A DNA stretch of 64,000 bases from Moniliella sp. 'wahieum' (GCA_003971905.1 RSEE01000003.1:1-64000), one strand, 5' to 3'. Positions 13,786 through 63,157 are shown, counted from the first letter of the stretch. Notes: a model not told the origin generated them from the sequence alone. Numbers and translations: made by a program.

Positions 13786-13789
13786 ACAG

Positions 13790-23047: not shown

Positions 23048-24270
23048 GACGCGTGACGCGTGACGACAGCACCCACGGAGCGGTGATGCGGTCGAAATGG
23101 ATGCGTGACGGCACGCCATGGCAACGCACCAGCCAGCCCCTCGGGCGCTGCCCCCGTGCGGGCCACCCCTCGGGCCCCAGCACGTCCAACACAAGGCCAC
23201 CAGGGATACTGGTCCTGTGCCGCATCACGCGGGCCCCATCGTTCGCCCCACTTGTCCCCGCACTGGCCGGATGCCAGCGTGGGCGAGCCAGCACTGCGCC
23301 GGCGGCGCTGGTTTTCGGTCGCGTTCTGTTAGGATTCGTATCTGAGACACAGCCTACGCTTGTTTCCAGCGTCGAGGTGACCGGTGAAGCTTGAAGCTTG
23401 AAGCTTCAAGCTTCAACTCAACGTACCTTTCAACACGGGAAGCTTCAAGTGCTTGACGCCTCACGCGATCCAGGTCGCTTTCTGCGTCCGCTGCTGCGTG
23501 TCGTGCTTCGCTCGTCTCTTTTTCGCTGCCGATGCGATCCATGATTGCGCGCGGGCCAGCTCACTTCGCCTGGCCACTGGGCGGGGGGGGGGAACCACCA
23601 CTCACTCCCTTGGCCTCAAGCTTGAGTTGAGGTGTCAGCATGGCGGGCAGCTGCCGGCGCTTCCCCCCTCGGCCTCAGAATCGTCGGTCATCGATGCAGT
23701 GTTTGTTATTAAAGGCTGGGTAGGCCTGGGCAGCCGGCACTAGGCTCTGCTGCTCCAGGACATGGGGCATGCATTCCTGACGCCTGGCTAGTGACTAGTG
23801 ACTAGTGACTAGTGGCTAGCGGACCAGCTGACGCGTGACGCGCGCGTGACGGCCAATTTAATCCACCCTGCCAAAACAGGCAGCCACGCACCATGCATCA
23901 TGCGCGTCATACCATCGAACCCTTTCTGTCGTTGCTTCGATCACTTCGATCACTCGATCACGCTCCTCCGGATCAGACACTGGCCCTCCGCCGTCCGCCT
24001 GCCATATAGCCCTCCCACCCGCTTCCACAAGTGCCCCCCCCCCCTCGCCCACTGCCCCCCAGCAGCTGCCTGGGCCATCAGCCAACCGGAGGCCATATGG
24101 CGTCCATCGCGTCCATCGCGTCCATCGCTTCTGGCGTCCACGGCGCGACAGGTGCCAGTTTCCACAGCATGATAAATCCCAACACACCCAACCAACCATC
24201 TCGGTACTCGGAATATTGGCAACCAAAACACCTTACATTTACAGAGGATCATCGATCACCGATCGATCAT
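23048..24270. promoter_or_regulatory. Intergenic cluster of 7-bp-period T(G/C)A + 4-nt palindrome arrays
   Basis: e.g. 23378-23415 TGA-CCGG-TGA-AGCT-TGA-AGCT-TGA-AGCT-TCA-AGCT-TCA; 23788-23819 (CTAG-TGA)n; 23829-23842 TGA-CGCG-TGA-CGCG. The pattern is directly seen; the regulatory role is inferred from position. Confidence 0.5.
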
Positions 24271-24959
24271 TGCATCAATATTCAATCCGCTTGAGACTGG
24301 AGTTCACTGCAACTTGTGGGGTAACTGAGGCCAATGTGCGCCGGAGGCCGCCGTGGATCCATCCATTCCGTATTCACTTGCCTCACAAAAAACGCACTGT
24401 ACAGGTATGGCTGCGCCGCGGACACAGAGCGCTCCGACGCGCAGCAGCTAGAGGGCTGGTCCAACGGTAGCCTACGGTAGCAAGAAGCCGGAACGAGGCG
24501 ACGAAAAGAGGGAAGGATGTGGCGGTGGTGCGGAAACGAGCAGCACGACTTGAGCAGAAAGGAGATGGGAGACAGCGGGGGTACGTCCGCTGAGCAGAGG
24601 AAGGTGTTGAATGACTAGCTTGACTCGACTCCATGAACAAAGTCACAAAGATGATGCTCTCTCGCATTCAAGTGTGAAGCTCGTTCGTTAAGCTTTTTTC
24701 AAGTCTGTGGTGTCCGCAAAGCGCTACTAGAAACGCCAGAGTGAGAGGCATTCCAGAGGCCCGAGTCAGGCCGGTTGAGGAGCTTGCACCGCTCTCAACG
24801 AGGGAACGCCAAATCTGGTCGTGTGTTCTCTCTTTATCTACATCCCCGCACTAGGGTCCCAACTACTTGGCCTCCCTTGCGTTTCACAGTGTTCGCGCGC
24901 TCAAGCGAAATCATTGGGACCATTGTGCGCGGAAACCGGTAGGCCTTCAATCCTCTCTC

Positions 24960-26770
24960 TCACAGCTCAGCCCAGTCGGCGGGGATGTGGCAGCGGGCCA
25001 TGCCACGCTCGTCGTATGCACCGGTAATGTAGACGTAGCCGGCCTTGCGGTCGACGGCAATGCTGGAAGGCGCGGTGGGGAGGAACCCCATTTCGTGGCC
25101 GGTGGCTGTCTCGACATTGAGCGCTTGCCATTCCGTCGAAGGGCGAGAGCGGAAGACAGAGGCGGGTGCATATTCTTTGGGGATGAGCAGCCCGCGCTCC
25201 CGCACTTGCTTCATCCGTTCGTACTCCCATGGGTGGGCCACCTGGTTCCCCAACCGCCAGACATATGTTACCTGTTCCACCGCCGTGCCCGGGCGTGGGG
25301 CCAAGGGGGAGCCCTGGGCGAGATGAGCACGTAGACTTGCGACCCACGCATCGAGTTCGATCGAAGAACTGCTGCCAGCGGTCCAGAAACGGCCGAGATC
25401 GTCAATGCCCAGTGCGGATGCCGGCCGAGCTGGGCGACGGGACCAAAAGTTGACAAAGGTGGGCAAGTAGGTAGCCACCTTGCGTGCCGGAGGCGCTACG
25501 CCACTCTCTTCTTCGGATGGAATGCCCTCCAACGCATCCTTGTACGTTTGGTACGGATCCGCCACCCCACCCCCGCCTCGACCCCCCGCACCCAATGTTG
25601 TTCCCATTCATGCACCGCCGTCTCCTCCGCACCAGTTGACAGCGTAAAGAGAATGCCGGCGGTAGAGTTGAACCCGGCCTTGGCACCACCACCATCCCAG
25701 GCCCGCACCGTTGGAGCAAAGCCAGGCCAAGATGGGATGGAAGATAAGATGAGGCCCGTAAGGCCCGCCCGCGCATTGTACATCCACACACCGCTACGAG
25801 GCGCCGCATACCGACCCGGACGCAGGAGGCGCATCACAAAACCCAAGTAGGAGGATGCAGTGGAAAACTTGGTGCCCGATACTGAGGGGTCGAAACTGGT
25901 GGGATCGGGCAGGGCCGAAAAGAAAAAGGAAGGTACTGCGACCAGTTGCGCATCCGACCGCTCAGCCACATGCACGTGCTGCGACGGTAAAAGGGGTGAA
26001 TATTGTTCTCGGAACAGGGTGAGGCGGTAGGGCGAGAGCGGCTTCTTTTCTCCCTCGGGAACAAAGTGGTCGGGTCCAAGACGGAGATGGTGCTGGAGAT
26101 GAGATGCGGGAGTGCGCGGGGCCGCGGGCAAACTGCCCAGGTCCCCCTCTTGCGCACCGGACGGGTGGAGCTGATGGACCAGTACATCCACCATTGATGC
26201 CTTGCCCGCCTCGGGTTGCGACGAAAGGAGCAGAGTCAAACTGTGTGGACTGGTTGCGTTTTCCCAGTTAACATCGAGGTTGCTCACCGCCAGCGCGAGC
26301 GGGTGGAAGCTGCCCCTGCTGGGCCAGTCGAGCACCTCCAGTTTCTGGGGACCATCGTCGCTGCGCGTGTCCCACATCCATACCCCAGCCTGGTCCTGGA
26401 AGGAGGGAGGAGGCGACTCCCAGGTGCCACTGGGGTCGTACCACAGCCGCGACGGGTCGCAGGTGACGTAGGCCATGCCCAGGGCGCGTGAAGCGTCACA
26501 TCGTCACAAAAGGCGAGGCCAGGTGCCTTGATCAGGGCGCACTCGTGGAGGTTGAGGGAGGGCTTGGGCTCGGTCACGGCGTGGAGCTTGACGTGGGTAT
26601 TGTCTGGCGGGGCGGGGCAGGGCGGGGGTTAGGGCGGGGGTTAGGGCGGGGCGGGGCAGGGCAGGGCAGGACGCAGCAGAATGACGGCGGGGGTGAGACG
26701 AACAGGGCAGGTAGGTGGATATGGCAAACAGCGCGGCGAACACGCTGCTGACGGCGACGGGGACCATCAT
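24960..26770 (-). CDS. Serum paraoxonase/arylesterase-like beta-propeller protein with N-terminal signal/anchor
   Basis: Hydrophobic N-terminus MMVPVAVSSVFAALFAISTYLP; in-frame intron 26703-26604 (GTTCGT..CTAAC..CAG); motifs ECALI..FCDDVTLH..AYVTCDPSRLWYDP and FHPLAL typical of fungal PON-like proteins; C-terminus AVDRKAGYVYITG. Several 1-nt frameshifts. Confidence 0.6.
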
Positions 26771-27060
26771 CCTGCCGAGGAGGAGGCGATGCAGGCGATG
26801 GGAGGTGGTGGCGGGGGGGGCGGATGCGCCACCTGCTCCACCCCCGAGGGCAGGAGAGGGTAGGTCGACAGACAACACGTGGTCGGGGGATGCGGAGTTG
26901 CACCGATGTGACAGCGCGTCCTCTCCGAAGCTTCGCGGCGCCACCGCATCGACATCCTCCATCCTCCATCCCGGTACGGTCCCCCACGCACGCCCAGCCC
27001 TCCTTCTATCGCCTATCGCTGCCGAGCGCATCGGATGGGCAGAGAATTGATCATGTCCCA

Positions 27061-27393
27061 TCAGTTCTTGCTGGCCGTCGAGCCCTGCACAAAGAAGGCC
27101 GACTTGGACGCGTACACCAGCGACACGTCAAACGCCGTCTCGCCCACCGCCAGGTACGTCCCCAGCAGCGAGCGCGGCGTCCCCTCCGGCACCTGTGCCA
27201 GGTCAGGTGTCAGCCCGACGCCCGCTTCAGCCCCGCAAGGCCAAACGAGAGCAGTGTTGCGTCGATGGTGAGATGTACGGCTTTGCCCAGCAGCTGTCGA
27301 GGACACGCCGCAGCACGCAGAGCGGGGAGCGGGGAGCGGGGAGGTTAGCATCCAGCTACGGCCCTGGGGGAGGCGGCGGGGACGTACTCCCAT
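27061..27393 (-). CDS. Small DUF1748-family fungal protein (~80 aa), one intron
   Basis: ATG GGA, intron 27387-27294 (GTACGT..GCTAAC..CAG), then LLGKAVHLTIDATLLSFGLAGLKRASGLTP..YLAVGETAFDVS..SAFF, matching the DUF1748 pattern. One G is missing in a homopolymer near 27213. Confidence 0.75.
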   Translation of the reverse strand: MGVRPRRLPQGRSWMLTSPLPAPRSACCGVSSTAAGQSRTSHHRRNTALVWPCGAEAGVGLTPDLAQVPEGTPRSLLGTYLAVGETAFDVSLVYASKSAFFVQGSTASKN

Positions 27394-27664
27394 AGTAGTT
27401 GAACCAGCGGGAGTGATGGAGGGGAAGGGGGGGATGGGACACTGGTGGTGGAGGTAACGGCAAAGACTCGAGCAATGTTCCGTTTACGCCAGCAGACCCC
27501 ACCGCCCGGCGGCACACTGCCTCCCCGCCCGATCGGCCGACTGCCCCCGCCGGACCGGGCTTTAAGATCTAACACCTGGCTGCCGCTGGCCCAGGCGCGG
27601 GGGGAGTGCTCTGAGCTCGGCGCTCCGGCACGCAAGTGCAGCACTCAGGTTAGTCGCTAGCAAG

Positions 27665-30600
27665 CTACCTGGCCTCAGGCCGAAGCCATGGCATGTGGGT
27701 ACGCCCACCCTCTTCAGATCGGTCTGCTCCCGCCTCCGCCTCCTCCTCCTCCATCCGCATCGGCGACAACCCTCCCCCCGCGTCCTCCGCCTCGGGCAGC
27801 ACGCCCGCGGTAAGGGCTGGGCAGTGGCCAAGTCGGGCGAAACCGGAGCCGGGCCCACGGTGGGGACGCGGCGCGACGAATAGGTGGTCAGCGATAACTG
27901 CGGCCGGCGCAGGCTGCTCCGTCCTGCTGTCGTGGGCCCCTGGCTGCTCAGTGTTGGCGTTATCGGCCGTTCAGCCACAGCCGCCGTTTCGTTCGAGCCT
28001 GGTGTAAGTGCCGACCAGGACGGTGCGTCCTCCGGGTAATCTGACTGCGATGGTGTGGGGGAGAAATGGCGCGTTCTCCTCCTCCAGCGCCGCTTCCCGG
28101 GCATTCTCCTCAATGAACGACAGGATCCACGGGTGCGCTCGCAACTCCTCCGCCGTCGGACGCTCGTTGGGGTCAATCGTCAAACAGCGTGCGATAAAGT
28201 CAATCCCCTCTGCCGACAGCTGCGACGGATCGGGCAGGGGTGGGTGCTCCCGGCCATGCCAACACGTAGAATGATCGCACACTGATTGTCCAGCTTCCGG
28301 GGCCGTTCTCCCGTCACACACTCCAACACCACGCACCCGACACTCCAAATCCATCACACCCTTTTTGCTCTTGTCCACCCCTGACATCAGGTCGGTTTGG
28401 ATCACCTCGGGCGACATGTACATCGGAGTGCCCTGCAGCGAGTTCATTGGTGCCTTCTTATCGTCCAGGTTGCGTAACGACCGCATTGTCCTCCCATGTC
28501 CCGACTGCGCAATCGTGTCGGTATCGTTGGCCAAGATCTTGGCGGCTCCAAAGTCAACGTACTTGATCACCCCATACGGATCCAACAGGATGTCTGGCAA
28601 AAAAACGCGTGGTCTCGTTAGCTCCTGCCTATCCACAAGCGCACCAAGAAATGGCAAAAGGCTTACTCTCGGGCTTAATGTCGCGGTGCACAATACCCAT
28701 GCCATGCAAATAGCTAAGTCCGTCGAGCATCTGCAACGCGTAGAACTGTATCACCCGCTCGTCGGTGATCGGACCATCTCGAGAAGGTGGGCAAGGGAGC
28801 CACCCTCTCAGTACTCTTCAAAGATATACACCTTGTCGCGATGCACCTCGATTCCATAATATTGGACGACATTGATGTTGTCCAACAGTTGCATCACCGT
28901 CAGCTCGTCCTTGATCTGCTGGAAAGAGCCGGATGAGAAGCAATGTCTTGGAACTTGATCTCCTTGACCGCCATCATACGACCCGTGTCCAGATCCAGCG
29001 CGGAATAGACCGTGCCAAACGTACCTGACCCCACCACCTGGCCCATTTGCCAATGGAACGCAGACGAGGACTGAGCCAGCGACTGTAACCCGCGGTCCTC
29101 AATACGTGAATCATCAAGCACCCTGCCACAGAACTGCAGTTCGCGCAAGTACTCGTCCTTCCGGGTTTCCAACTCGTCAAGCGCACGCATCCGCTCCTCT
29201 GCTCGCCCAGACTGCTGGGCATTGAGTAGCATCGCAGCCACAGCAGCCTCCGATTGCTGGTGCGGTGGAAGGCCCCTCCGCACTTCCTCCACCTCAATCT
29301 CCTCAGCCGCCTGGGCCGTCCTCTGCGCTACCTGCGCCAAGGCCAGCTTTTGCGCCGCTTCGCGCGCCTGGACGGTCATGCTCGACCGCGCGCCCAGAAT
29401 GTCAAAGTGGGGGATCAGGAGACGGATGCAAATACCCACCTTGGTTTTCAGCAGGACATAGTCCTTCTCCTGGAGCTTGAGGATAGTATCGCTATTGGTA
29501 GAGATGAGGCATCTTCCAGCGCAGTGACGGCCCACTTGAACGTACGACGATCCGTGGGCACACAGTCGTCCGTGATGAACGAGATCCAGTATTGACAATG
29601 GACAAGTGAGCAATCGCCACGTTCATCTCTGCCCGCCTTGGCGGACGCAATAAAGGGTAGCGAGCGCAGGGCATGTTCCGAAGCAATCTGGTAACATCTC
29701 TGTATCAGCTCATCACACTCCCCCCCTTTTCCTTGCTCTTGACCGCGGGGTCATACTGCTGGAATCGAAGCCGCTTTCGCTGCTTAGGCACCTCGGTGAT
29801 GATCGCCGCTGCCAACTTATAAATGCCCTGGTTGATTTTGCCACCTCCTTCTGGACCGAGTGGATGTGGGCCATGTACTCTGCCACCGTCTCCAGCGGGA
29901 AGGCCGCGCAGTTCACATTGGCCAACGTCTCCGACCGGGCATGCGGTCGCTCACCCTCTCCCTGTCGGAATGGTCAAAGGCACCATAGAGGTGGTCCTTG
30001 CAGTGCTGGAGTTCGGCACGCGAGCCATCGGCCACCAGCCTAAACCGGTTGGCGTGCATTTGGATGTCCACCTCAGGGGTATCTAATGGCATCACCTTTC
30101 CCGTCCAAACAAAGTCGTCACGCAGAGAAGCAGCAGCAGGTACTGGCACCACCTGTCGGCCGCAGGACTTGTTCCCGTGAGCCGTCAGCATGGGCGGTGT
30201 CAATTGTGCGAATGCATCCTGACCCCAGACGTTGTACTGGTCCAAGCGCTGATAGCGCTTCAGGTTCGCCCGGGCGGGCGGATGAGACGAGCGCAAACAT
30301 TTTGTCAGAAGGTCCCGCACCAGCTCGGTCTTATCGTGCAGGGAAGGCAGTGCCAAAACATAAATCCCCCGCTCGGAAAGGTAGTGCAAGTGTACAAGGA
30401 AGAAGCCGGCGTCTTGAAGCGTCCGCAAGAACCAGCCTCGTCGCTCGGGCTGGAGCGAAGCCAAGTCGTACTCGGCGGCGTTATCGAGGCGGGCACGAAT
30501 GTCGTGTGAAAAGGCAAGGAGACGACGCGATCGAATCCGCACATTCTCCATCACAGCTCGAATTCACGTCTCGGCCTCGCGCAGGTCCATTAGCAAATGG

Positions 30601-32393: not shown

Positions 32394-32556
32394 ATGAATA
32401 TCAACCCCCGGCGGCGTGCGGGGCTGGACAACGCACATCCAAGCACAAGCACAACTGCAGCCAACGCGCCCGAAATCGAAATAATCAATTCCATCCTTTC
32501 TTCTGCCTCTGCACACCACCGCCGCCGCCGCCATCGGCCTCATCGTCCCCACCACC

Positions 32557-33398: not shown

Positions 33399-34084
33399 TC
33401 ATGCGAATACGCCTGTACAAAAATCTACGCTCATTTCCCATGCAGCCATGCCCAGCTAAGTGGCCCCACAACTCCCCTCGTACCCGTCCCACTCTGGCTC
33501 GGACTCGGGCTCTGCCAGCCGCTCCGGGGGCGGCGCACCAGCTTGTGTCACGGCCTGTTTTCATTCCCCTGGCTTGCGCGGGCGAATGTGGCCATACGCA
33601 GTGCTAGTGCCGTGGAGGAAGTAGACAAAGATGTTGTGTCATCAGACGGCTTCCCAACTGGTAGAGACAAAGAAACTGGCGTTAGAAGACCTGGCTGTCC
33701 CATCCCAAGCCCGGACACCCATCCGGACAAGTGGTAAATCAGCCTCCGGACTGTGCTGGCTCGGCCCCTTGCCTGTCCAGAGCAAGAAGGCTTGCCGGTG
33801 GTGGGAGCAGCCCCGGTGCAGCGCCCCCGCTGTTCCTGAGAGACAGTTTGGTAGCTACTTAAAGCGTAACAACCCAAGCTCAGAACTGAGTCGGTGAGGG
33901 TGGGACAACGTGGAAGACGTTTCTACGAGATGCATAAAAAAGCGTGGGCTTCCGCATGGCAGTGATTATTGTGTCCAGCAGGGGTAGGCTCTGTGTCCTC
34001 CGGCGCATAAGCTCTCTAGATCCGACGTCTTCGCCGTTCCTATGTCCGTAGACTTATAGCAACATCAAGTCGGGTATGATTACA

Positions 34085-37994: not shown

Positions 37995-39682
37995 CCTCGC
38001 GCGTTGGTGGCAGAGGAGAGGCAGGCGGTGGCGGCGACGGCGAGGGAAGCAGCGCCTCGGCGGGCCTGGTGGCCTTGGAGGTGTGGGCGCGCATTTCAGC
38101 CTGGCCTGGCCAAATAAAAATACACAGCCTCGTCGCCCGCGCCTGTCTCGCGCTGGTCGGGAGCAGGCGGGCACGGGGGCAGTCGCGCCCCGGCCCCTCC
38201 GACCGGGGGGACGGGTGATCGGGTGATCGACGATCGACACTCGGTGACGTGAGTGGCGGCAAGGCAATCGCAGCGGCCGTTGAGCCGCTCTGGCCTGCTC
38301 TGCGTCTGAATATTGAATCCGGCCCCTGTCATTTAATCGAGGAGCATCGCTGTGCGCTTGTATGTTGTGCCGCGATCCAAAAGGAGCACATGCATCATGC
38401 ATCACAGTCGTTCAACGGTTCAACGCTCATGTTGATTGTTGATGCGCTCTTTACCGTCGCAGCAAGCGCAAGCGCCTGGGACTCGGTCCTCTGACTGTCT
38501 CGCTTGTTCCTGTTTTGGGGATTGAACAGCCATATGTATACAGCCACGCGTGCTATCTCTGGGACGAGGTGGCCTCCCTCTTTTGACGTGGGAGCGCCCA
38601 ACTGAGAGGTTATTGGAACGGCTTCTCGCGAAAAGGAGAAATTGAACGGCCCACAGGGGCATCGGCCGGACGCTGCGAAGACACTAGGATGTCGCAGGTG
38701 CGTTTGGACGGAAGGGGCAAAAAGCTGGGGCAAAACAGATGCCTGAGTGCCTGAGACGCCGTGTTGGGGACACAGCAATATAATGTTTTTGTGTCCTGGG
38801 ACGGTGGGACTAATGAGAAGCGTTGTGACGTCATACATAGCTTGCCCACAGGCTAACGCCGTGTGCCCCAAGGCACTGAGCCAGCCCACTCGTGCGCGAC
38901 CTCGCCTCTCCTGTGTCGTGTCGTGACCACTACCCCTCATCTCTTCGCTCCACTCAATACTTCCTTGCTTCTCTTACCGTCTGGTCTGCTACTCACTACA
39001 CAGCCGAGAATGGTGTTGCAGGTGTCAAATTCACCTGACCACAAGTTTTTCATTATCGTTCGGTGCGGGGCAATCGGCCACGGGTTAGAGGCCAACCAGC
39101 CTAACTCACAACCGTGCATACGCTGCCCTTGTACCGTTCCTCTGACACCCCCTACCCCCACACTCAAGCGTGACTGTGTCCCCCTACTTAGTGCGTCCTC
39201 TGGATACCCCACACCCGCTGAGGATAAGTTACAGCTGTGTTCCCTTACAGGGTCTTGACGCCTCGTCAGAATCGCAGCACGACGGCTGACCTGCCGCTGG
39301 TCCTAGTCGGTGGCATACAGATGACGCACGATGAGGATGCCACTAAAACACCAACAGGACGATATAGTACAGACAACCTCCAACTCTTTGCAGAAAGTGC
39401 AGAGCCAGGTGCGAGGTTGGCGTGGGGTGCACGGCCCATGCCATGTGAGGCCACCAATCTTTGGCTGGGTCCAAGGGCCAGTCCGATGGCTAGTTGGCCG
39501 ACTGGACTAAGGCCTAAAGAGCGGGGGAAAGAGCGCGTCATATGGCTTCTACCCCATCTGAAGGCGGTTCATGGATTGGGCCGGAGCTACCACAGTAGCT
39601 GCCTTTAGGGGCTCATCAACCACGCTGCCTTCGGACAGAAAAAAAGAGAGGCGAGAGACCAAGAGAGGCCGGAGACATGAAA

Positions 39683-43654: not shown

Positions 43655-44181
43655 GCGCTCATCGATCACTAGTTGCTCTGGTGATAGTGACGCGTGACGC
43701 GTAATGCGCGTAATGCGCGTAATACCCCTGACGGCCTGACCGGTGAGGATATTGATTTATCGCTCCCACTCAATGAGCCCCGGAATGCAGGCTGGCAGCT
43801 AACCGGCTATGCGCGCTAACCTGAGGTTAAGCTTGAGGGAGGCTTGGGGCCTGAGGCGTGGTTATATTTAATGGTTATCGATTACCCACTGGTCGATCGT
43901 CGATGATCTCCACGGCGCGTAGGAAGATGGTACGCGCTACGCGGTACGCGGTACGCTTAGGGTGCATCGGCTATCTCGCGATATGTAGCTGTCGCTTCCC
44001 CACCGCACCTCCCCATTCGTGTCGCGCAGGTGTAGATCCCCAGTGCCGAGTCTAAGATCCAAAGTCTAACGTCTAATCGTGCACCACGCAAGTGCGAACC
44101 TTGTCGATCCCATGTCACATGTGACATGCGACGCATCCGACCGTGGACGTTGAACGTTGAACGTTGAACGTTGACCGTTGA
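43655..44181. promoter_or_regulatory. Intergenic cluster of 7-bp-period T(G/C)A + 4-nt palindrome arrays upstream of the glyoxal oxidase gene
   Basis: 43655-43672 GCGC-TCA-TCGA-TCA-CTAG; 43688-43701 TGA-CGCG-TGA-CGCG; 43733-43746 GGCC-TGA-CCGG-TGA; 44111-44128 CATG-TCA-CATG-TGA-CATG; 44147-44181 (ACGT-TGA)n. Confidence 0.5.
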
Positions 44182-45624
44182 ACACGTGGAACAGCCAATG
44201 TCCTCCGTTGCGTCTGGACTCGATCTTATAATGTTGGGACATTGAGGGCTTCTGAGATGTGTGCGTTTCGTTATCTTCCCTGCGAGGCCTCTCTCCCCTC
44301 GTGTTCCTGGGGACGAGGGCCGAGAGCCCTACCACTTTTTTAGTTCTTTTCTCGCTTCCGGTTGCCGTCTCTTCGTTGTTAGCTGTGCGTGCGGGAAGAG
44401 GTGTTTCCCCACATCCCCCGCTCCTATGTTCCTGAGTACTGAATTGATGTGGGCTGTAGATCCCGTTTACCCTCGCATTTCTGGTTTGCGTCTCGTCTAT
44501 TATTCCTTCGTATCATCAGTCGCTGAGAGAGCTTCGATGATTGATATACCGTGGTGGCACAGAGGGTTTTGCCAGTTCAAGCGATCCTCATCCTCACTAG
44601 TCACTGCCAATCAATCCTCCAGGATTGTCTTCGGGTGCATCTTGTCCTCTCAGCCCCATTTTTTTGCAGGGCTCCCACGGTGTTGTGGAGAACGGACACC
44701 GCACTGTGGGGACCTGGGTATAGGACAGGGTATATAGGTTTATGGGGTGCTTTCCCGCGGAGAGGAGAGAAGGAGCCACTCGTAGTTAATCGAGCCATAA
44801 ATGTACTTTAGTGAGACGACGCAGGCAATGGCGGGGTTGGCCAGGTCCTGCGGCGGAAACAACCACACAACTCTCGCCTCTTGTGCAGGATCGTGGCGGA
44901 GTCCATATGTAACTAATACGAGAAACAGTTTGGGTGCACTTTATTGACGGCAATGGTGAATGCCCCACAAAAGGACACTCGACTTCGACATGGCAATAGA
45001 TGTGGGCGAGGGATACTGTGGAAGAGCAAGAGCTATGGCCATCGGGGAAGCTGTTAGTAAGAAAAACGAGAGTGAAATGGCCATACGCTCAGGCTGGTTT
45101 TGTGCGAAGGGATAAGTATACTATTTGAGGGTTGTGTTGCGTCGTGGCCCTTACACGTCCGTAACACTAATAGCAATACTCTCTCGGCTAATGTCGTGAA
45201 GAGTATGATGCCCTACGATAGATTTATAGTGGTAGAAAGAAGTATTCAGTGTACTCTTGAAATCAACCCTCCCAAGATGCGACTCCGTTCTCAACGGATA
45301 GTACCATTCAGCCCAGACGGAAAGCGTTGAATGGCAAAAACTATATATGTTGTGTTGCGTGTTTCCAGCTACAAACATACAAGGGAGCTATCCTCCGGAA
45401 CGATACATCAACTAGCACAAGAAGTTCTACACTACACACATAGATCATAAGAATTAGCATCGCCAATACTACCGTCATCTCTGTTGTGGTGAACGTCTTA
45501 ATTCTCTCGAGGAACACTTTGGTCCTCTTCATTCTTTGCTATCGGACATTTCAATGACTGTATTGCTTGCACTTTCCCAAAAGTATAGCCTGAAGGTCTC
45601 AGTTCGAAAGGGAAGGAAAAAGTG

Positions 45625-45729
45625 TGAAAGCAGAGGGATTTGAACCCCGAATGTCGCAGTACCCCATCGTATATTCAACGGAAGACATAAGACTTGAATG
45701 CGATGCCTTAACCGCTTGGCTATGCTTCC
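45625..45729 (-). tRNA. Intron-containing tRNA with CAA anticodon (Leu-like), short variable loop
   Basis: Acceptor GGAAGCA/TGCTTTC plus discriminator A; D arm GCC-AAGCGGTTAA-GGC; anticodon stem TCGCA/TGCGA with loop TTCAAG|C; 33-nt intron 45692-45660; T loop GGTTCAAATCC; T5 terminator 3 nt downstream. The 5' strand of the T stem is one base short. Confidence 0.8.
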
Positions 45730-46797
45730 GACGTGTGATAGGAACCACCGCATTGTTTTGCTTTTATCTAGCGCAGCAAAAACAAGTAGTGAGAAAGAGT
45801 GAAGCTAATACGCAAGAAGCTCAACGAGCCGGATGGTAGCCGTGTGGTCGAGCACACTGCAGCAATGCGATTACTGACACCACCCCATCCCTGTCCAGAA
45901 TGCCAGGTGACAAAAAGTCGAATGTGTTTGTGCCTGCCCTAAACTGGTGGGTCGAGACGGATGGTGGCCCCCAATTATGACGTTGCCCCCAATGCCATGA
46001 TCTAGACCGTGTTGGTGGGTTGTGGAACGCTAGGTCATCGTAACAAAACGGCCTCAAGAACTAGGTCGCGTTCACACCCTTTTCGACGCCTCCCATCCCA
46101 CAGTATTTTTCCTTTATGGTCGGTTCGTCGGCCCGTTACCTTGTCCCTCTTTGTGCCATTCCAACTTGCCGCTTCAGAAAAACGGCCTCGCAGTTCCAAT
46201 TTGCCAATGCTTCTCTACTACCGCTGACGCCGAATCGGCCGAGCCTGGGCTTAGCAAAAGTCGTCATTCCATATGGAACTGTTGGGGCGGGGCATACCCT
46301 CGTGGTCACTAGCTATTGTACGAAAACACGTTCCTCTTTTCTTTCGCCTCCTAATTCACTGTTAATACCAAACTGCCCACTGCACACAGGCAATTCTAAC
46401 CTACTTGGACCTGCCCTCAAAACCGGCTCAGAGATGGGAACCACCCACCTGAGTTGAGCTTATGGCTTGCCTGCCAGCCTTGTTGTTTACTACCTGATAG
46501 CTTGATCTTACGGCTTGCTACCCTAAGATCGGAATTACGAATATATTGAATCCCCTGTGCCTAGCCGCCAGAGGACTCTCTCAGGCCGTCCACGCTTGGG
46601 GGGTTGCCTTGCTCTGGGGCCACACCCGGACGCTATAGAGGCGCTACGATAGGATGCGAAGAGGAGGCTTGAAGCTTGACAACCAGGAGCGCATGAGCTA
46701 TATGTGGCTGGTTCCATGGAGCTCCCAACAAGGGAAAGAAAAGGGAAAGGAGGAACCCTGGATGGTCAGCGAGGCGGGAGGCATTGGCCGTTTAGCG

Positions 46798-50839: not shown

Positions 50840-50887
50840 GGTGGCGGCCAAGGGATGGTGAGGATGGCGGTGGTGATGGTGGGGAGG

Positions 50888-50926
50888 GGTGGAGGTGGAG
50901 GTGGAGGTGGAGGTGGAGGTGGAGGT
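50888..50926. repeat. (GGTGGA)n microsatellite just upstream of CAND1
   Basis: Six and a half perfect hexamer units. Confidence 0.9.
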
Positions 50927-51988
50927 CTTGTGCTTTACGGCCCACGACGGCTGCGCTGCCCACTGCCAGGGGCATACGTCAGCAGCTCACCGCGGTCATT
51001 GATCATCCATCCTGCGTCACGCATCATGCATCATGCATGGCAGCCACAACCACCCAGAGCAGCCCAGCGACGGAGGCCCGTGCACGCCCCCCTCTCCACT
51101 AGTTCAACATTCATCGGTCATCCCAGGAGCACGCAAAGTCGAAAAGGCGCAGGGCCCGCCTACAGTGCCCCCGCCTGGCTTACTCTTGAATACCATGCCA
51201 GGCGTATCCTACTCTTGCTGGTCACTCATCACTACCGCAACGACCTAGCCGAGCAGGATCCCTTTTGGAAGGCACGACGCCAACACACCCAAGAGTTGGT
51301 GCCAAAGGGGGTGCCAGTGGGATGGTAATGGCGATGGGAATGGTGACAGTGACGGGGGTGATGTTTTGCAACGACCATCTCGACTTTCTGGCGTGACATG
51401 CATGCCATGAGACACGACAAACGGGGCGAGCGGGTGGCGGAATGGGTACACAAGCACAGGCCTTTGTGGGTTCAGGCAACAGTACCACATGTGGGACAAT
51501 CACTCAGTCCCGCAACAGCCTCAAAGATCTATGTAGGATCCCAAGCCTAGCCATCCATCCTTGCCTTCTCCGAGCATTGCCCCATCCATCGATCCGCATT
51601 GTTCATCATTCATCATTCCACCTTTGTCACATTTGGCATTCAACATTCCACGATCAACGATTATCGATTATTGAGGTAACAGTCCATGGCTGTTCAACGT
51701 TCACCAGCTCCACGGGGCAAGTGCGAAACCATGGCGAGAGGGTTCACCATTCGGGGCAAAGCAAAACAAAAAAACAAAAAAGCAGCCAAACGACCACCCC
51801 ACCAGCACTGCAAAGGGGGGAACCCAACCGCCATCCTCTCGCACGGCCCCCCTCGCACATGCACCCACCAAGGGGGAAGGGGGCCAGGCCGGCGGCACAA
51901 AAACAAAAAACAAGTCAAGACAAAAGAAAAAGAAAAGAACGGTACACCCTCCCTTCTGCCGCCCTTGGGCCAGCTCCTTCTCACGTCC

Positions 51989-54923: not shown

Positions 54924-55599
54924 GGTGGGAGGCGAGAAGCTCAACCGCGGGGATAAGGATACGCAAAGATGCACCGAGTGCGGTTGTGCGTCTGGAGAAC
55001 AGGGGCCTGAGGGTACAGCGGCAAGCCAAACATATCCAACCCCGGGCAGAGGCGGTGGTTTGGGCGCGGAGCAGCGGGGGGGAGATGGGGGAGATGGGGG
55101 CGGGGGCGGTGGGGGCGCAGAAGACAGGCAAGAGCAGCAGCAGCAGCACCAGCAACAATAACAGCCCCAGCAACCCCGAGAGCAAGTGCCAGTGGTGGAA
55201 CAGACACGAGCAACTCCGAGCACAGCGCAACCGCCCAGCGGAGTGTGCACGCGCAGGCACTGGCCCACTGCCCCCGGCTGCATGTGCTCCCGCGGCCACA
55301 TGGCGCCTGTCTCGGCAACCATCCCCTGCAGCCGCCTGCAGCTGCCGAGCACTGCCCCTCCGCCCCTGCAGCCCAGCGCCCAACAACAGCCTATCCTCGC
55401 CCCACTGGTGCTGCTGCCTCCTGCCGCCCGGTGCCTACCGCCAACCCCAGCGCAGCGCCAGAGAATTGGTTCCCCGGGGGCGGCGCCGCTTTGCTCCGGC
55501 CTCACCGGCTCACCGGCACCACCAGGCCCCAGGCCACTGCCGCGCTGCTGAGTCTGCGGCCTTCTGCCTTGCGCTTATCGACCAGCGATTGCGCAGACG

Positions 55600-57801
55600 A
55601 TCGATTATCGGCTATCGCTATCGGCTATCGACTATCGACTGTCCCGTATCGACAATGGTTGCAACAGACAGAACATGGACGTTGAGCGGGCAGCGATATC
55701 GCTCGCGCCCCTTCTTTGCTGGCGGCCATGCAGATTGGGCTTCGCTGTCCGAGTGCTAGCGCCTGCCACAGCCGAGCAAATCCATCGGCTTGGCGACATC
55801 TCCGCTAGGTACAACGTCCGGATCTTGGGATCCCCTGCCACTTTTTGTCACTGCCACCGTCGTATGGACTGGCGGCGGTATCACTTGAAATGTACAAAGC
55901 ATTCAGAAGAATCAAAGCTTGCGCGAAGAACAAAAAAAAAAGTAAACCCCGCCGGAGATGTCGGGGATCATCGATCATCGATAGTTCAGTCCTCCATCCC
56001 TGTCAGTGTCCTGACGTAATGTGCCTGTGTGTGTGCCACACGTCATCTAACGGGGGGGCGGAACACTGGCGGAACGGGGCCGCCCGCGCCCAGGTCTTGA
56101 GATCTCAGATTGACTTCAGACAGGACAAAGTGGCGAGCCCCACCGTCTCTCAAGCTTGAGGTTCAAGCTCGACGTGCGTCTGAAGGAAAGGAGACCGGAT
56201 GCCAAGAAGGCATATGGAGCGAGCAGGAGTCTGCAGTCTGCGGAGGGAACTCTTCCGCCCGAAGAAGCGAACGGCACCGGGTCTCACAGGCCAGCTTGAA
56301 GCTTGAAGCTTGCTTGGAGCTTGAGCTCAAGTTGGACGTCAGTGAACTCAACGTGACTTCGCCGATCCTGTCCCCTCGTCTCTACCAATACATTCTTTGC
56401 CTCCCTTTGCACATGGCTCTCACTCGTATCGCCCCACCCTAACCCCCCCGCAGACCACAGAATCTCTCACTCCTCCTCACAGGTCGCCCCCGGTCACCCA
56501 CGTTGCCCCCGCCCGCCACACTGGGGCCATGGCGCTGGAAGCCTAAGCCCGGACCCTTCCGGTCAATGCCTTCCAATATTCCTTCCTGGAGGGCAGGAAT
56601 ATTCTGTAGCCTTTGTAGCTCGTGTGCAATGCAATACACACCATCAACTCTGTGCTCTCTGGTCTTCTACAGTGGGAGATGGAGCATGTGACCCGGTGGA
56701 GGGGTCCCGATCCCACATGCCCCATCGCTCCCACATGCGACAGCTGAAGTATTAACGCCCAGGAAGAGCTCAAGAGCAGCAAATGGAATGGTGGTCGATG
56801 GATTCAAATTGCTAAGGCGGTGGCGAATCCAAGTCATCATGGAGTCGGAAACGCCACGTCAGAAAACATCACACGCGCATCACACATGATGTCACTCGGA
56901 AGTTACCTTGGCCATAAATGACCAGAGGTCAACATGAAGTTGAGGACGTTGAGGGCTGGCTGAGCAGCTGCGATCTTTTTCTATGCGATGCTGAAACGGA
57001 CATATATGTTGACTCGTTTTGACAGCGGTCGGCGAGACATGATGACATCAGCTGCTGTCGCAAACAGTAGGTCTTTTTTTTTTACGGGTCCAGAGGGTCT
57101 GTGGCGGCTGGACGCTCTCACCTCTCGATCTCACCTCTCGTGAGAGACCGAGGGTCGCATGCACATCCGTCTCAATACTTTTCAGTAATGCTCGGCTTCC
57201 GGTCGGGGGGTCCAAACCAAAAGTTGCGCGAAGTCTGTATAGAACATCGGGCTGGTCCGATCAGCGCCTTCTGGACGAATATCGAAATGGACAGGCAAGC
57301 CAAAACAGCCCCTGGCCAGTACCATAGGCGCCACGAAGACGCAGATGCTTCTGTCTTCAATTTCAGCTTCCAGCTCTTCCAGCTTGGAGGTTACCGGTTA
57401 CCGCTCGCCGTCATTGGTCACACGCCTGTGCGGCGTGCGGCCCACACCTGCCCACACACGCGCTTACGGGAGCACGTCAGGCATGAGCCTCGGGGCTAGT
57501 GAGGCCTGAGGAGTGCTCCAAGATCGGTAAAGTCAGCCATTAATCATTGCTCCACAATCGGTGAAGCCGGTCATATATAGTCACCGTCGCAACACTAGCC
57601 TGCCTATAACAGCTTCTTACTTCTTTGTGGCGGCTGGGCGCCTCTCGGCGAGCTCCGATGGACGACAGCAAAACGAGAATCGGATCGGGCCCTGCCCGTC
57701 CCGGTACCTGCCCTTGTTCTACGCAGAAACGGTCCTAAGCGTTACCCAGCCGCCCCCCACGTCGGTGTTCTGAATCAGCATGCACCCGTGGTCACCGGTC
57801 A
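55600..57801. promoter_or_regulatory. Intergenic T(G/C)A + 4-nt palindrome arrays between divergent genes
   Basis: 55968-55981 TCA-TCGA-TCA-TCGA; 56098-56107 TGA-GATC-TCA; 56293-56310 AGCT-TGA-AGCT-TGA-AGCT; 57496-57509 CTAG-TGA-GGCC-TGA; 57792-57801 TCA-CCGG-TCA. Confidence 0.45.
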
Positions 57802-58186
57802 CCTCGGGCGTGTTGCCAGCCCGCGGTGGCTGGTGGCCGGTGGATCGAGTAAATAAACGCTAAACATCAACAAGAGAGCGTGTCGCTGAGCAAACGGAGC
57901 AACCCAGAGGGACCTGGTGGCCGCATGGCGTACACAGTAAGTCATGGTGACCATCCCACAGTTCTTTATATTTGTTTTCGTTTCGGCCTCTTCTGCCGCG
58001 AAGAGCGGCGTCCCGACTGCAGCCACCCCACCAGTAATCGACGACACACGGACCAAGTCTCGGCGCGGCCCACCTCCCTCCAGACAAGCCTTCAAGCATC
58101 AGCCTCCACCGGCGTCCGGCGCTGTGGACCCCACACTGCCCCACCATCGCCCCCGTCTCCGTTTCTTCTTCCTTCCCCACCACCCC

Positions 58187-60173
58187 ATGTCCCTCCTGCC
58201 CAGCGCCATCTGGGCTCTGCCGCCCGACCCCACCAGCACTGCGCCCAGCTGGACCCCGGCTGGGCCTCCCTTCCTACCCCTACCACCCTCGCCATCCACC
58301 TCCCTCCGCCGGCCAGCGCAAGTGCCCAAGTGGACCTGGCAGCCTTCACCGTCGTCCGCACCCGCACCGTGCCCAGCGCCTCTACCTCGCCCCCCCACCC
58401 CGCTGGCACGCCGCGGCCCGTGTCGCCCACGACCCCACCCGTCTCCCACAGCCGTGCAAACAGCAGCACTCCGTGGCAGCGGATCACCAAGCGGTCCGTC
58501 ACTTCCCCCGAACTGTCTTCCAAGTTGGGTGCCCATGCATGGCAATCGAGCTGCTCGCCCCCTCTCCGCCGGGCCGACAGACAGGGCCAACGGTGGGCAG
58601 TGCGGTGCGCTGGTCCATGCCGATACAGGTCGGAGCGTCGCGGCCGCAACGCAGGACGCCGCTTCTTCGTGTTTCGCGTGGAGGACGTGCAGACGGCCAC
58701 TGGCTGGGCCGCCACACTGGCGCCACTGCTGGGCATCCCCCCAGGCTCACCTCAACCGCACCCCGAGCCTCAATCTGGATTGGCGCCGTCGCCCGCCCGG
58801 ACGGATGCAGTCCCCCGTCTTGCCGACCCCGCCTCCGCCTCCGCCGCCGGTAGCCCGGCCAAGGTCAGCTTCCCCAGCCAGAATCGTCCCCACGAGAGCC
58901 AGCTCAGCTTGGGCAAGCTCTCGGAAGATTCGGCGGCTTCACCCTCGGGTGTTCGTCAGCCGGCGGTTTCGGTCGCCAGCCGCTTCGACAACGCCGTCGC
59001 CGTCGAGACGCGTGTCGCCGAGTAAGGCCAAGGGCGGGCTGTGGTCGCGTCTTCTGCCTCTTCGTGTAGGACCCCGCGTTCGTGCCTCTGTCTCGTTCGG
59101 TAACAGGGAGCAGTAAGGAGGCCTCTGCTGCCGCGACCCATACGGCGCACAGTTGGCCAGCCCACCCCCAACACCGTACCCCCCCGGTCGGGTTTGCCTC
59201 TACCGCCAGCACTCCCTCACCCCGGATCTTCAGGCCAGCTGTTGTCTCCGCGTAAGCCCTCGTTCCACTCTCGTTCGGGGTCCCGCTCGGTCCATGGTCT
59301 CTCTGGTACGGCAGAACCAGCGTGCCAACCTCACAGCAAATACGACATGCACAAACCTTTGCCCTTGCCCTTCCCGTCGCCCGCCTCTTCCCGCACCATG
59401 CTCTGGGACACCAATAATGCACTTCACCTCTCTGCACCTACCTACCCGAACCCATCCCCCGTCCCGTCGCCCGTCCCGTCGCCCATTCCGTCGCCCATCC
59501 CCTCGCCTGCGCTCACTAACCCACCCCAGAGCAAGGACACGTTCGCCGAAGACATCCCGCCCTGGTTGCATCAGTTCCGATCCCACGGTCCTGTCCATCT
59601 GCCGAATCAAGTGCCCGTATCTGCCTCCCGACCTCTGCCTACGTCCCGCCATGAGGCAGCCCTGCTTGGCCTCAGCGCATGTGTGATCCGACTCGGACCT
59701 TATCACATGCTGCGTCCATGCCAGTCCTGCGCGCGGGGGGGACGACGCCCTGTTGAAACGCCGGCTGGGCCTGCGTGGCTCCTTCGCCTTGACTGCCGAT
59801 ACGGTTGCTGGGCTGGCAGACCAATTAGCTTCGGGATCGAGCGTCGCATGGCACACCTCCCCCGCACCCGACTTTAACCAGCAGACGGTCCCGGACGCCC
59901 CGCCCTACGTTCCGTACCAGCCTACTTCTTTCCTTCCTCACCCGACGTGGCACGGTGATCCGTGCCTCCCCCTGCCACGTCTTCCTCCGAGTGGGGGAAG
60001 GCACTGCCGCCGCACCCCGACTCGCCCCCCCGCCAGCGCCCATGCGTACCGTCTCCAGCACCGCGTGGCCTAGGTACGCCCTCGCCCGTGCGGTGGTCAC
60101 AAGCCAGTGCCAAAACGTTTCAAGTCGGAGCTGGTCTAGCCTAGCCGCTCCCCCCTCTCGGGCTTTCACATGA
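58187..60173 (+). CDS. Hypothetical Pro/Ser-rich protein, possible N-terminal PH-like domain
   Basis: ATG in a ccaccccATG context; overlapping long ORFs joined by frameshifts; RFFVFRVEDVQTATGWAATL resembles the last strand and helix of a PH fold (inference). Confidence 0.5.
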
Positions 60174-62032
60174 CGCGTCACGACCGCTACACGTATCCCT
60201 TTTCCAGCCAGAGAAGGCCTCACCTGAACTGTTTCCCCGTCAAGCTGTGCCACCCGGGTTCCACCCAAACTGCATTGGTTTGGCTCCCTTTTCCCAAGCA
60301 GAGACTTAAGGCTGGCAGCATCGCAGCCCCCCTTGGGCACTTGGGATCTTTATATCTCTGCTTGTGCCTCACTTTCATGGGCCCTGGTGGCACCATTCAA
60401 AAATTACCACTGTGCAGTGGAGGGGGAAGACATCTGCTCCATTCTGCTCGTTTCCTCCCCCCTCATACACGTACTATAGACGCACACAGGAACCCTCTAC
60501 ACGTCCTCTCCTTCCAAAACCGCCATCTGCTGGCTCGCCACATCTCCCTTGCGTATACTCACCGGGACAAGAGTAGGAAAAGCGAAACGAATTGCTCCTC
60601 TCGCCCATGTGCGTGACCGATCTTTGATGGCCTTCTCGTATCCCCACAGACATAAAAGAAGCTTAAGAAAGTTTCCGACTCCCCCCAGGATCTGAAGTCA
60701 CTGATCAAATGGATTAAGCGTTTTTACTTGAACTAAGGTAGAAAAGCCGGAAGCCAGGAGCTACAGACGCCAACAGGCTTACAGAGAACAAGCTGCCGCG
60801 AAACCACTGGCACACTTTCCCTCGTTGTCTTTCTCATATAATACTGTCCAACAAAACGAGAGCTTCCATGGTATACACAGATGAAATTATAACAGTAACC
60901 GCCGCTCACACCTGAGTTTTCGGCGCACTGCCTGCCAGCACGTCGACATGGTATATGGTACCTGTTACAATCGTTAGACAATCGTTAACTTTTTTCGACC
61001 TTGCCAATCATTGGAAGGTGTGCCTCTAGCTTTACCGTTTCGGGAGTCCAGTTGATGTTACACTACCGCTGCCACCAGCTCACACTCTTTAATCCATCAG
61101 CACTGCTCCCTTTCCCTTCGTAAAATCTTTCACCCCCCCCTCCCCGCCCACTCGCGAGGGACCAGAGGGTTGTGTGTGAGTAACGGTCACCGACCGGAGC
61201 AATCGCAAATCACAGCCTGACGCCAGACCAGTGTGTAACCAATCTCATTTTCCGACGTGCCTCGAGAGGTTAGGAATGATCAAATTCAAAAGTTGGCAGG
61301 TCCTCCCTCGTGTCCACGCCCAATCTCACTTCTCTTGTAAGATGTAATGCAAGCGGCACACACGTGGAACCGAACAACAGCAGAAGAGCGAGTCCTCTTG
61401 TTGATATGGTTCCAATGCACATCCGTCTGCGCTATGATCGCCCACGGCCGGCGATATCGGTGAGTACAGAGTTTCGACATGTGGTATGAGGGGGTTAGAT
61501 ATCAAAGGTTAGATCTCAGATGATGATCATTATGATCTCGACGATGAATTTATTGAACCACACAGCGCGGGTGTGGCTCGTGTGTTCTGGCCGAAAATCC
61601 CATCAGTCCTTCCTCAGACATAGGAGTTTTGCATCCGTCGTGTTCTCTCTTTTGTTTTCCTTGTTCAACGGCCTACTTTAATAACCCCTACCGGTCACCC
61701 TCAATAAGGACCACAGGACTCCAGGTCTCATCAAAATGTCACCGTGTCCCCCCGCCAAACACCACAGCCATATTCTATTCACCGTATACAACTAGTATGA
61801 TGAACACATGCAAGCGCATTCTTGACGTGCTATTGCGCAACTCTCGGGGAGCCGAGGCTCTTCTCCCCTCAAAGTTCAACGGGGGTCATCTATATGATCC
61901 AGTTGTTTGCAATTATAAACTTGCATTGAACGCTCAAACGAAAATTGCGTAGTACGTTTGTGAACGATACTAGTACTGAGGGCTCCGTATTGGGTTGGGC
62001 TGTCCTGGGCGTCGGAGCGCTTGCTCACTCAG

Positions 62033-63157
62033 TGAGTACTCAGGCTAAGACTCAGCGCCGCAAGGCATGTGACTCAGAGCGGGAGTTTAGGAGAAAACGA
62101 GGATGGTGCATGTTACGTACCAGTCGTCTAGTTTGCCTGTTGCTGCTGCCACAAGTATAGAGGGGATGTCCCCAGAGGGGATTTGGGATTGTGCAAGATG
62201 ATGACGATGTCGATGATGGTGGATTGTCGATTGCAGCAGACGCGCAAGGGCCCGAACGCCTTTCCCGCTGGAAGCGCGTCCGAGGGCCTGTGGTACCTGA
62301 GCGCGGCCTGGCACTGGGCGCTTTGAGCGCCTTGAAGCTTGAAGCGTGAGCGCTGGAGCGCGGAGAGGCCGAGGCACTGCGGCGTGAGATTAGGCGAGCG
62401 TTCGTCGTATCCTAAACAAGCGGCTCTTTAATTAGGAACGGCCACCTACAGAACACTGCCGCCGTGCGTGTGAAGAAAAGCGGCAGGCGCGGGGGAGCGG
62501 GGCTAGTCACCAGTTCCAGCCACTAGTTACTCAACAAGCCTGAGCCTCAGGGCCACTCTCGTGTCGCCTCACGGCAACAAAGCAGCTGGCCCGACGCCTC
62601 CCGACGCCCACTTGGCAACCGGGCACGGAGAACTCGTTTGCGCTGAGGCTACGGCACGGCCCCCTGTGCTCTGGCGTGCTGCAGCGGCCAATTAGCTTAA
62701 TTAGGCCGCCATGCGGCCAGTGCCGATGCCCGCCCTCATCTGGGTGTCTCAAGCTTCTGCATCATGCATCACACATCATGGCGCTACACAGTGGCTCAGT
62801 GCTCAGCGAGCCTACAGCTTAGCGCTGATCAATGATCGATGATCTGCTAGTCATCGATACTGGATGATGCCAAGGCTCAGCCAGCACGGCGCCTGCCTTT
62901 GGACCTCCAGTCTCCAAAGCTAAAGAATGTGGCAAAAACTGTTTTGGTGCCACTGCGCTGCAACCCCTCTGACAAGAGCCCGAGGGCAGCCTTGGGCAGC
63001 CACCGTGCCGCCTCCAACCCCTCCTATCATCCACCCCCGCTGCGTCCATCCGTTGCCCTCCACCCTATCCGTCTGACACATCCGCCATATACCCCTCCCT
63101 CCGCCCGCGCCACACGTCTGGGTTCCGTTGTTCAACGTTCAACGTCACGTTCATGCA
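62033..63157. promoter_or_regulatory. Intergenic T(G/C)A + 4-nt palindrome arrays
   Basis: 62033-62042 TGA-GTAC-TCA; 62333-62353 TGA-AGCT-TGA-AGCG-TGA-GCGC; 62758-62771 TGCA-TCA-TGCA-TCA; 63132-63157 TCA-ACGT-TCA-ACGT..TCA-TGCA. Confidence 0.45.

Follow-up and report, generated by a model that had tools for sequence, protein, structure and literature searches.

What writes a seven-base rhythm into the non-coding DNA of a fungus? The stretch that raises this question, here called the window, comprises the first 64,000 nucleotides of contig C3 of Moniliella sp. 'wahieum' (GCA_003971905.1, RSEE01000003.1:1-64000) and is the telomeric end of that contig, in an assembly of 69.5 Mb and 223 contigs. 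Between positions 23048 and 63157 its intergenic DNA carries arrays in which T(G/C)A spacers alternate with variable 4 nt palindromes. An earlier note on this DNA saw in them either a signal for promoters, origins or chromatin that is read by its structure, or the scar of a recurrent mutational process. Our analysis leaves little doubt that the pattern is real and genome-wide and that it is a stereotyped mutational scar, not a maintained code. The scars were probably left by the insertion and flank-hairpin excision of a cut-and-paste transposon with a 7 bp TNA target (N being any base), with the arrays built by iteration at hot spots.

The examples listed in the earlier note are all present, at positions correct to within 4 nt. 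Over the whole window a palindromic core is found at 38 of the 92 T[GC]A-N4-T[GC]A sites; for the 21-64 kb part the count is 38/81, against means of 2.0-4.8 and a maximum of 10 in 60 Markov simulations at each of the orders 1, 3, 4 and 5, and for 1-21 kb it is 0/11. TCA/TGA stand far above the other 31 trimer spacer classes. We extended the count to a non-random genome sample of 864 kb, consisting of 80 stretches of 10 kb together with the window, and there 700 of 1,522 such sites have a palindromic core (∼6% expected). Palindromic cores exceed expectation both in the window, where the Markov background was run, and in the sample. In the 69.5 Mb assembly the two-unit pattern with AGCT cores has 2,457 matches, and its reversed control has none. 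Counting all spacer types, the density is ∼1 site per kb (926 in the sample), and the arrays are clustered: 55% have a neighbour within 100 bp, compared with 24% for random TNA sites, a set that includes coding sites. Among other fungi the pattern was not seen at 80 loci around relatives of one same gene (0/84 at the 17 closest loci and 24/292 at the other 63).

Several details of the original description needed adjustment. The spacer is T-N-A and not T(G/C)A alone, with TAA and TTA spacers giving a palindromic core in 135 of 310 cases; the middle base is identical on both sides in 757 of the 926 sites. The all-A/T cores, which had gone unnoticed, do occur: ATAT is found in the window at 24275 and 38307, and in the sample, where all 16 of the 4 nt palindromes are present, TTAA is found 26 times, ATAT ten, AATT seven and TATA five times. 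The statement that all 12 palindromes containing G or C occur in the window stands for 11 of them with both spacers strictly T[GC]A and fails for GCGC, which is found with a single spacer (43655) or as TTA-GCGC-TGA (62819). Only the 4 nt core is strongly enriched; symmetric cores of 3 nt are found at 311 of 1,033 sites (25% expected) and those of 5 nt at 88 of 806 (∼6% expected).

The core can be read from its surroundings: it is the flanking dinucleotide joined to its own reverse complement. A target ab-TNA-cd becomes ab-TNA-cd-d'c'-TNA-cd, or in the mirror orientation ab-TNA-b'a'-ab-TNA-cd, with a gain of 7 nt, which we call the 5+2 rule. At sites of the form TNA-cd-nn-TNA-cd, with both strands counted, nn is the reverse complement of cd in 868 of 1,192 cases (74.5 expected). 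For sites with any other first trimer the rule holds no more often than by chance (554 against 624 expected), and other lengths are near chance too. A 5 bp duplication with palindromic (P) bases at either end was tried as a different product and rejected, with 114 of the 1,192 sites against 868 for the 5+2 rule. Of the isolated single scars in which N is identical on the two sides, 296 in all, the core agrees with just one flank in 194, with both in 31 and with neither in 71. The trimer next in rank after TNA for the rule is CCA (36/178), and the target may possibly tolerate a C in the first position. At window position 55837, filled in the second copy of the region introduced below, a 7 nt insertion obeys the 5+2 rule at CCA instead of TNA.

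Contig C61 carries this second copy, which differs from C3 at 2,515 of 84,209 aligned columns (3.0% divergence), and 85.7 kb of alignment between the two were used for indels. The sizes of clean indels peak at 7 nt (13 of 5 nt, 16 of 6 nt, 25 of 7 nt, 5 of 8 nt, 10 of 9 nt and 6 of 14 nt). Of the 32 clean indels of 7, 14 or 21 nt, 19 obey the rule if one mismatch per unit is allowed; 12 of them do so exactly, and eight of these 12 are not tandem duplications; with shuffled inserts the rule was fitted in 10 of 6,400 trials. Three exact filled/empty pairs lie in the window. The cleanest, which is not a tandem duplication, is at 44594..44605 (plus strand), where C3 has TCA-CTAG-TCA-CT and C61 a single TCA-CT. 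At 44236..44250 (minus strand) C3 has an empty single TNA site (44241) and C61 the predicted 7 nt insertion with an ATAT core, and at 62968..62976 (plus strand) C3 has an empty single TGA-CA (62970) and C61 the predicted insertion with a CATG core. With 19 events and 2,515 substitutions the rate is ∼1 event per 130 substitutions between the copies, and this rate makes the process a major source of non-coding change here.

Once formed, the symmetry is not looked after. The C3/C61 alignments hold 136 motif instances, counted from both copies, of which 49 are gapped in the other copy; of the 87 aligned without a gap, 72 show no difference, the core is broken in 12 and a spacer is altered in three. 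Substitutions are found at 14 of 348 core positions (4.0%), compared with 3.5% in the flanks, and the T and A positions of the spacers differ between the copies at 4 of 348. None of the 12 changed cores in these alignments had become another palindrome. The symmetry is therefore written at birth and then decays, and the claim that core symmetry is what is kept is not supported: cores change at least as often as their flanks, without compensation.

The scars avoid coding DNA, as had been proposed. In 163 kb of coding-like DNA, assigned by an unsupervised codon model, the core is palindromic at 9 of 149 sites, which is background level, compared with 909 of 2,190 in the remaining 691 kb. This absence is explained by the frameshift that a 7 nt insertion causes in a reading frame. 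The claimed absence from the subtelomere is borne out for T[GC]A spacers at 1-21 kb, but two T[AT]A-type sites are present there, at 1483 and 14973 (2/25). With a crude gene model, convergent gaps hold 0.49 sites per kb, divergent gaps 1.36 and same-strand gaps 1.30, so that the preference for positions upstream of genes is partly supported by the lower value in convergent gaps; in long same-strand gaps one half is as rich in sites as the other (1.60 and 1.68 sites per kb, from the same model), and a promoter bias is for this reason only partly shown.

Mixed arrays follow from the same rule, because one event in each orientation gives two different cores. All 35 mixed arrays consist of two cores in two blocks, and 23 of them match both outer flanks. 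In the sampled locus L008:9481 a lone TCA in one copy corresponds, in the other, to three TCA that enclose two unlike cores, both as predicted from their own flanks. Two-unit arrays are mixed in 22 of 111 cases, compared with 23% simulated for iterated events in random orientation. The argument that slippage of a single microsatellite cannot produce such arrays is thus upheld, as the two-core arrays match iterated events predicted by the flanks.

A minor class of sites points to the extent of the underlying event. Here the whole heptamer ab-TNA-cd is duplicated together with two inverted bases (7+2). Heptamer duplications separated by 2 nt have the inverted end between them in 60 of 101 cases when TNA is central, compared with 14/37, 8/60, 11/52 and 6/44 at other TNA offsets and 50/457 without TNA. 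Its members in the window include two 9 bp arrays (23935 and 43698) and a site at 56939. As the 7+2 class is centred on TNA, the underlying event probably duplicates seven bases centred on TNA, and the class agrees with the remnant of a target-site duplication of fixed length.

These observations suggest the following course of events. A cut-and-paste element would insert by a 7 bp staggered cut centred on TNA and duplicate ab-TNA-cd; strand transfer by a transposase followed by gap filling would account for a 7 bp duplication centred on a symmetric motif. Excision would proceed by way of hairpins on the two flanks, formed flush; nicking flush at the border is a feature of RAG and Transib. Each hairpin would then be opened by a host nuclease of the Artemis/Pso2 kind two bases past its tip, to leave 4 nt palindromic 3' overhangs, cd-d'c' at one end and b'a'-ab at the other. 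End joining would usually keep one overhang and remove the other whole, with the exact 5+2 product as the outcome, and partial trimming, in which only two bases are removed, would yield the minor 7+2 class. Each scar would leave a second TNA target, hot spots in open non-coding DNA would be hit again, and selection would remove the 7 nt insertions from reading frames. Repeated hits would build arrays because each scar adds a TNA, and the clustering of the arrays fits hot spots in putatively open chromatin.

Such a course has precedents. Formation of a hairpin on the flank is an established feature of hAT, Transib, MULE and RAG (PMC5499845). Artemis opens hairpins mainly at +2, with a 4 nt palindromic 3' overhang as the dominant product (PMC2175297), and the Artemis-related Pso2 acts on Ds hairpins in yeast (PMC5873905). 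The closest parallel is with the P nucleotides of V(D)J joining and with excision of the Transib/RAG type, where a flank hairpin opened at +2 gives an even 4 nt palindrome from the last two flank bases; in our sites, too, the added bases are copied from the host flank, as the counts for the 5+2 rule and the filled/empty pairs demonstrate. Unlike those systems, the Moniliella scars have a 7 bp duplication centred on TNA, one dominant product, a genome-wide density of ∼1 scar per kb and iterated arrays. Ac/Ds (hAT) footprints in plants, budding yeast and Candida albicans are alike in their short palindromic insertions and trimming at the empty donor site (PMC5873905), and hAT7 of rust fungi has a 7 bp duplication and occurs in basidiomycetes (PMC12730594). 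CACTA/EnSpm and other fungal CACTA/Transib-related (CMCT) elements, such as CNEST of Cryptococcus neoformans, have Tnp2-type transposase genes, of which there are examples in this assembly, and belong to a clade that includes Transib and RAG1 (PMC12810828, PMC12730594). Unlike the scars, CNEST duplicates TA (PMC12810828). The words 'footprint' and 'excision' are absent from PMC12810828 and 'hairpin' from PMC12730594. The pattern works like the P-nucleotide footprints of flank-hairpin transposases, with a CMCT transposase as the leading candidate.

Several results weigh against an excised transposon as the source. The most direct is that no resident element with inverted ends and a 7 bp duplication centred on TNA was found in ∼1.05 Mb containing ∼750 arrays, in a search that could see only elements lying wholly inside one 10 kb stretch or the window. 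In the same ∼1.05 Mb, inverted-end seeds with 5-10 bp duplications gave only chance or array-derived matches; among 12,747 pairs of identical nn-TNA-nn heptamers there were three hits, each of which came from an array; and a search for shared sequence after nn-TNA-nn gave 64 words, the best 40 of which were homoeologous copies, tandem repeats or one retro-like family. Two candidate end motifs follow an nn-TNA-nn heptamer in seven places and one place, with unrelated sequence downstream, and five large insertions that distinguish the C3 and C61 copies had, on inspection, no inverted ends with a 7 bp duplication. Pfam searches of the assembly with PF05699 (hAT dimerisation) and PF18758 (KDZ) found no match, a weak negative with controls that also matched nowhere, and those with PF10551 (MULE) and PF13359 (Harbinger, DDE_Tnp_4) found none either, again a weak result. 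The scars themselves are not without exceptions: the 71 isolated singles that match neither flank, the 13 of 32 clean indels that do not fit the rule and the three-unit arrays, which are mixed in 10 of 19 cases (35% simulated), depart from expectation. The direction of the indels is unpolarised, two copies being compared without an outgroup, and the analysis of how far the duplication extends was non-discriminating, as events of the mirror orientation were present in its control. Double units where the other copy has no array make up three of the 19 fitting indels; strong hot spots or local re-insertion must be assumed, because this far exceeds what independent hits would give. The relatives are also imperfect. 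The palindrome in Ds footprints is centred on the complement of the element-adjacent base, an odd centre, and Ds footprints are heterogeneous (28 kinds in 128), whereas the product here is more uniform (PMC5873905) and the even 4 nt core dominates (700/1,522), without the single unpaired central base of hAT. Published CMCT elements duplicate 2-5 bp (PMC12730594), compared with the 7 bp deduced here. As the comparisons with hAT and with CMCT elements each fail on one defining feature and the element is unseen, membership in any named family is not supported.

The three Tnp2-type loci, at which we found no inverted ends, CA..TG included, also count on this side. The PF02992 search of the assembly gave two matches, and protein searches brought in one further locus, on C62, and nothing with the C34 protein; the loci are thus on C34 (L105:3262-6872), C17 (L104:4181-5985) and C62 (L106). 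C17 and C62 share their gene at 92%, as counterparts, and the gene on C34, with its long open frames, has arrays on its flanks as any ordinary gene does. The genes of these loci are candidate domesticated transposases, and it is conceivable, although we judge it improbable, that the scars are written by a domesticated RAG-like host transposase system encoded by the candidates on C34 and C17/C62, which would revisit TNA in open chromatin.

More generally, the 5+2 rule could be produced without any mobile element, by a host or domesticated enzyme or by break-and-template-switch repair of fixed geometry at TNA in open chromatin. We regard this as unlikely, but it would explain why ∼750 arrays are accompanied by no resident element in the 1.05 Mb searched, and the great uniformity of the product, the repeated hits at single sites, the clustering of arrays (55% against 24%) and the lack of inverted ends at the Tnp2-type genes of C34 and C17 (the latter shared with C62) all point the same way. 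It gains some weight, too, from the double-unit events at sites that are empty in the other copy, which need strong re-targeting. What argues for transposition instead is the 7+2 class, which needs the whole TNA-centred heptamer to be duplicated first, as strand transfer and gap filling do; hairpins from a 7 nt staggered cut without gap filling would put the inverted bases on the wrong side. Staggered 4 nt cuts with fill-in, suggested in the earlier note, would give core joined to core without a spacer, unlike the pattern, while the hairpin opening that it also named agrees with cores predicted by their flanks and with alleles that differ by the predicted 7 nt. A promoter, origin or chromatin signal read by symmetry and kept by selection is now very unlikely. 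The non-coding location, the lower density in convergent gaps, the clustering and the rarity of differences at the spacer T and A positions (4/348) would suit it, but the frameshifting 7 nt insertion accounts for the coding absence, the cores are derived from their flanks and arise at empty sites, and they show neither conservation nor compensatory change, with a gap in the other copy at 49 of 136 instances, by which this idea is largely refuted. Some scars may nonetheless have a secondary use as putative binding sites.

The remaining explanations are simpler and fare worse. That ordinary slippage microsatellites, or tandem duplication of heptamers that are palindromic by chance, underlie the pattern would be in keeping with the same N on both sides in 757 of 926 sites and with the four of 12 exactly fitting indels that are also exact tandem duplications, and some arrays may indeed lengthen by slippage. 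This origin predicts a match to both flanks, seen in only 31 of 296 singles; eight of the 12 exact indels are not duplications, and mixed arrays occur at about the rate of iterated events. It was ruled out by the flank test and by the pairs at 44241, 44594 and 62970, and we give it very little credence. Footprints of an element that duplicates the 3 bp TNA (PIF/Harbinger-like or mariner-like) and leaves two bases of each of its own ends would have TNA directly repeated around a 4 nt palindrome, as is found, but the element ends would then fix the core, and instead all 16 palindromes occur and the host flank decides which; together with the lack of a DDE_Tnp_4 match in the assembly, itself weak evidence, this makes PIF/Harbinger or Tc1/mariner footprints extremely improbable, and the dependence of the core on the flank refutes them. 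Finally, the many 1 nt indels (662 clean ones in 86 kb of C3/C61 alignment) and the frameshifts in conserved genes suggest unpolished long reads, and a sequencing or assembly artefact might be sought in them. An artefact should affect coding DNA and the first 21 kb as well, and 72 of 87 ungapped instances are identical in two separately assembled copies, with substitutions in the other 15; this explanation is scarcely credible. The excised transposon therefore remains the reading that we prefer, at the strength given at the outset.

The individual sites in the window show the range of forms. The first is a TGA-CGCG-TGA scar with both flanks matching (23054..23063), followed by a mixed array of five units, CCGG and then AGCT four times, in two blocks with the left core predicted by the left flank (23378..23415). 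The segment 23788..23851 holds a CTAG array (23792-23808), a CGCG scar (23829-23838) and an overlapping heptamer duplication with a 4 nt palindromic spacer (23834); the 9 bp-period array of the 7+2 class extends over 23935..23961, and a TCGA scar and the first all-A/T scar, ATAT, each with one flank matching, lie within 24249..24284. Upstream of the minus-strand RSN1_TM gene (38307..38404) are an ATAT scar at 38307 and a TGCA scar at 38395. The cluster upstream of the minus-strand glyoxal oxidase gene (43655..43884) comprises TCGA at 43659, two CGCG units at 43688 that run into the 7+2 array 43698-43723, CCGG at 43737, AGCT at 43827 and TCGA at 43875. It is followed at 44111..44183 by a CATG scar (44115) and an ACGT array (44151-44174), the latter shorter and different in the C61 copy. 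An AGCT scar lies past the 3' end of the minus-strand CAND1-like gene (46670..46679) and a TGCA array upstream of that gene (51017..51038).

Further along, TTA-TCGA-TTA and TCA-ACGT-TCA scars match their left flank (51661..51703), and 55968..56312 contains TCGA (55968), GATC (56098) and AGCT (56150) scars and an AGCT array (56293-56312). The 7+2 site occupies 56939..56954. TTA-CCGG-TTA at 57389..57402 has two more units in the C61 copy; CTAG-TGA-GGCC-TGA (57496-57509) and a CCGG scar (57792) fall within 57496..57801, and TGA-CGCG-TCA at 60171..60180 has its right flank matching. GATC (61509), GTAC (62033) and AGCT (62333) scars are spread over 61509..62342, a cluster of TGCA (62762), GCGC (62819) and TCGA (62833) covers 62758..62842, and the last site is an ACGT scar with both flanks matching (63132..63146). 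At four places neither flank matches: TCA-AGCT-TGA at 23616..23625, which is decayed or due to chance, TAA-GATC-TAA at 27563..27572, TAA-GGCC-TAA at 39508..39517 and TGA-GTAC-TGA at 44433..44442.

The window has a G+C content of 59%. Positions 1-626 hold telomere repeats with interspersed degenerate copies, then directly a 5S ribosomal RNA gene at 508-626, and the subtelomeric part has a weak reverse-transcriptase match at 12817-14262 (PF00078, E value 4e-4). The genes from ∼21 kb onward include those for a protein kinase, an RSN1_TM protein, a glyoxal oxidase and a CAND1-like protein. Among the matches listed, the glyoxal oxidase is 80% and 75% identical to the two closest proteins, 66% to that of Tilletiaria anomala and no more than 55% to the remaining named proteins, from smuts and Malassezia. 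By this single gene the fungus would probably be placed near Tilletiaria, among the exobasidiomycete smuts. Apart from C61, window positions 22000-63815 have further copies at 76-88% identity on C119, C92, C16 and C37; the multiple copies of the region indicate a hybrid, polyploid or mixed assembly. Opposite 45113-45122 the C61 copy (L087:772-1379) has a 608 bp insertion with a 10 bp duplication; a related 494 bp insertion is found in L098, the end of the 608 bp family recurs in at least eight loci and the family looks like a 5'-variable retro-type element. The segment 39785-40190 is a dispersed repeat with many genomic copies, in which a short hairpin with CTAG after it occurs twice and is suggestive of Helitron-like 3' ends, and a tRNA gene of 105 nt, a length sufficient for an intron, is on the minus strand at 45625-45729.

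Excision footprints as such are already known. In Ustilago maydis, small 10 bp repeats were suggested to be transposon footprints (PMC4081816), and by description they share with our arrays that they are numerous, short, intergenic and proposed as footprints in a smut fungus. For the 5+2 rule we found no description in the literature searched, which lay mostly outside subscription papers. What appears to be new is the single dominant 5+2 product on a 7 bp TNA target, its frequency of ∼1 per kb and the way in which it is iterated to form arrays whose units can be predicted.

Provided that its non-random stretches are typical, the sample extrapolates to ∼60,000 sites genome-wide. If the scars are indeed those of an excised transposon, this genome records tens of thousands of transposon visits that are invisible to repeat annotation, and the process offers a route to short tandem repeats other than slippage, in which two neighbouring bases predict each unit. 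Should the element be CACTA-related, the scars would bear on the mode of excision of that group. And should a domesticated transposase be at work instead, short tandem repeats and regulatory variation would arise in this fungus from a self-propagating process, driven by an enzyme, that steadily rewrites its promoter DNA.

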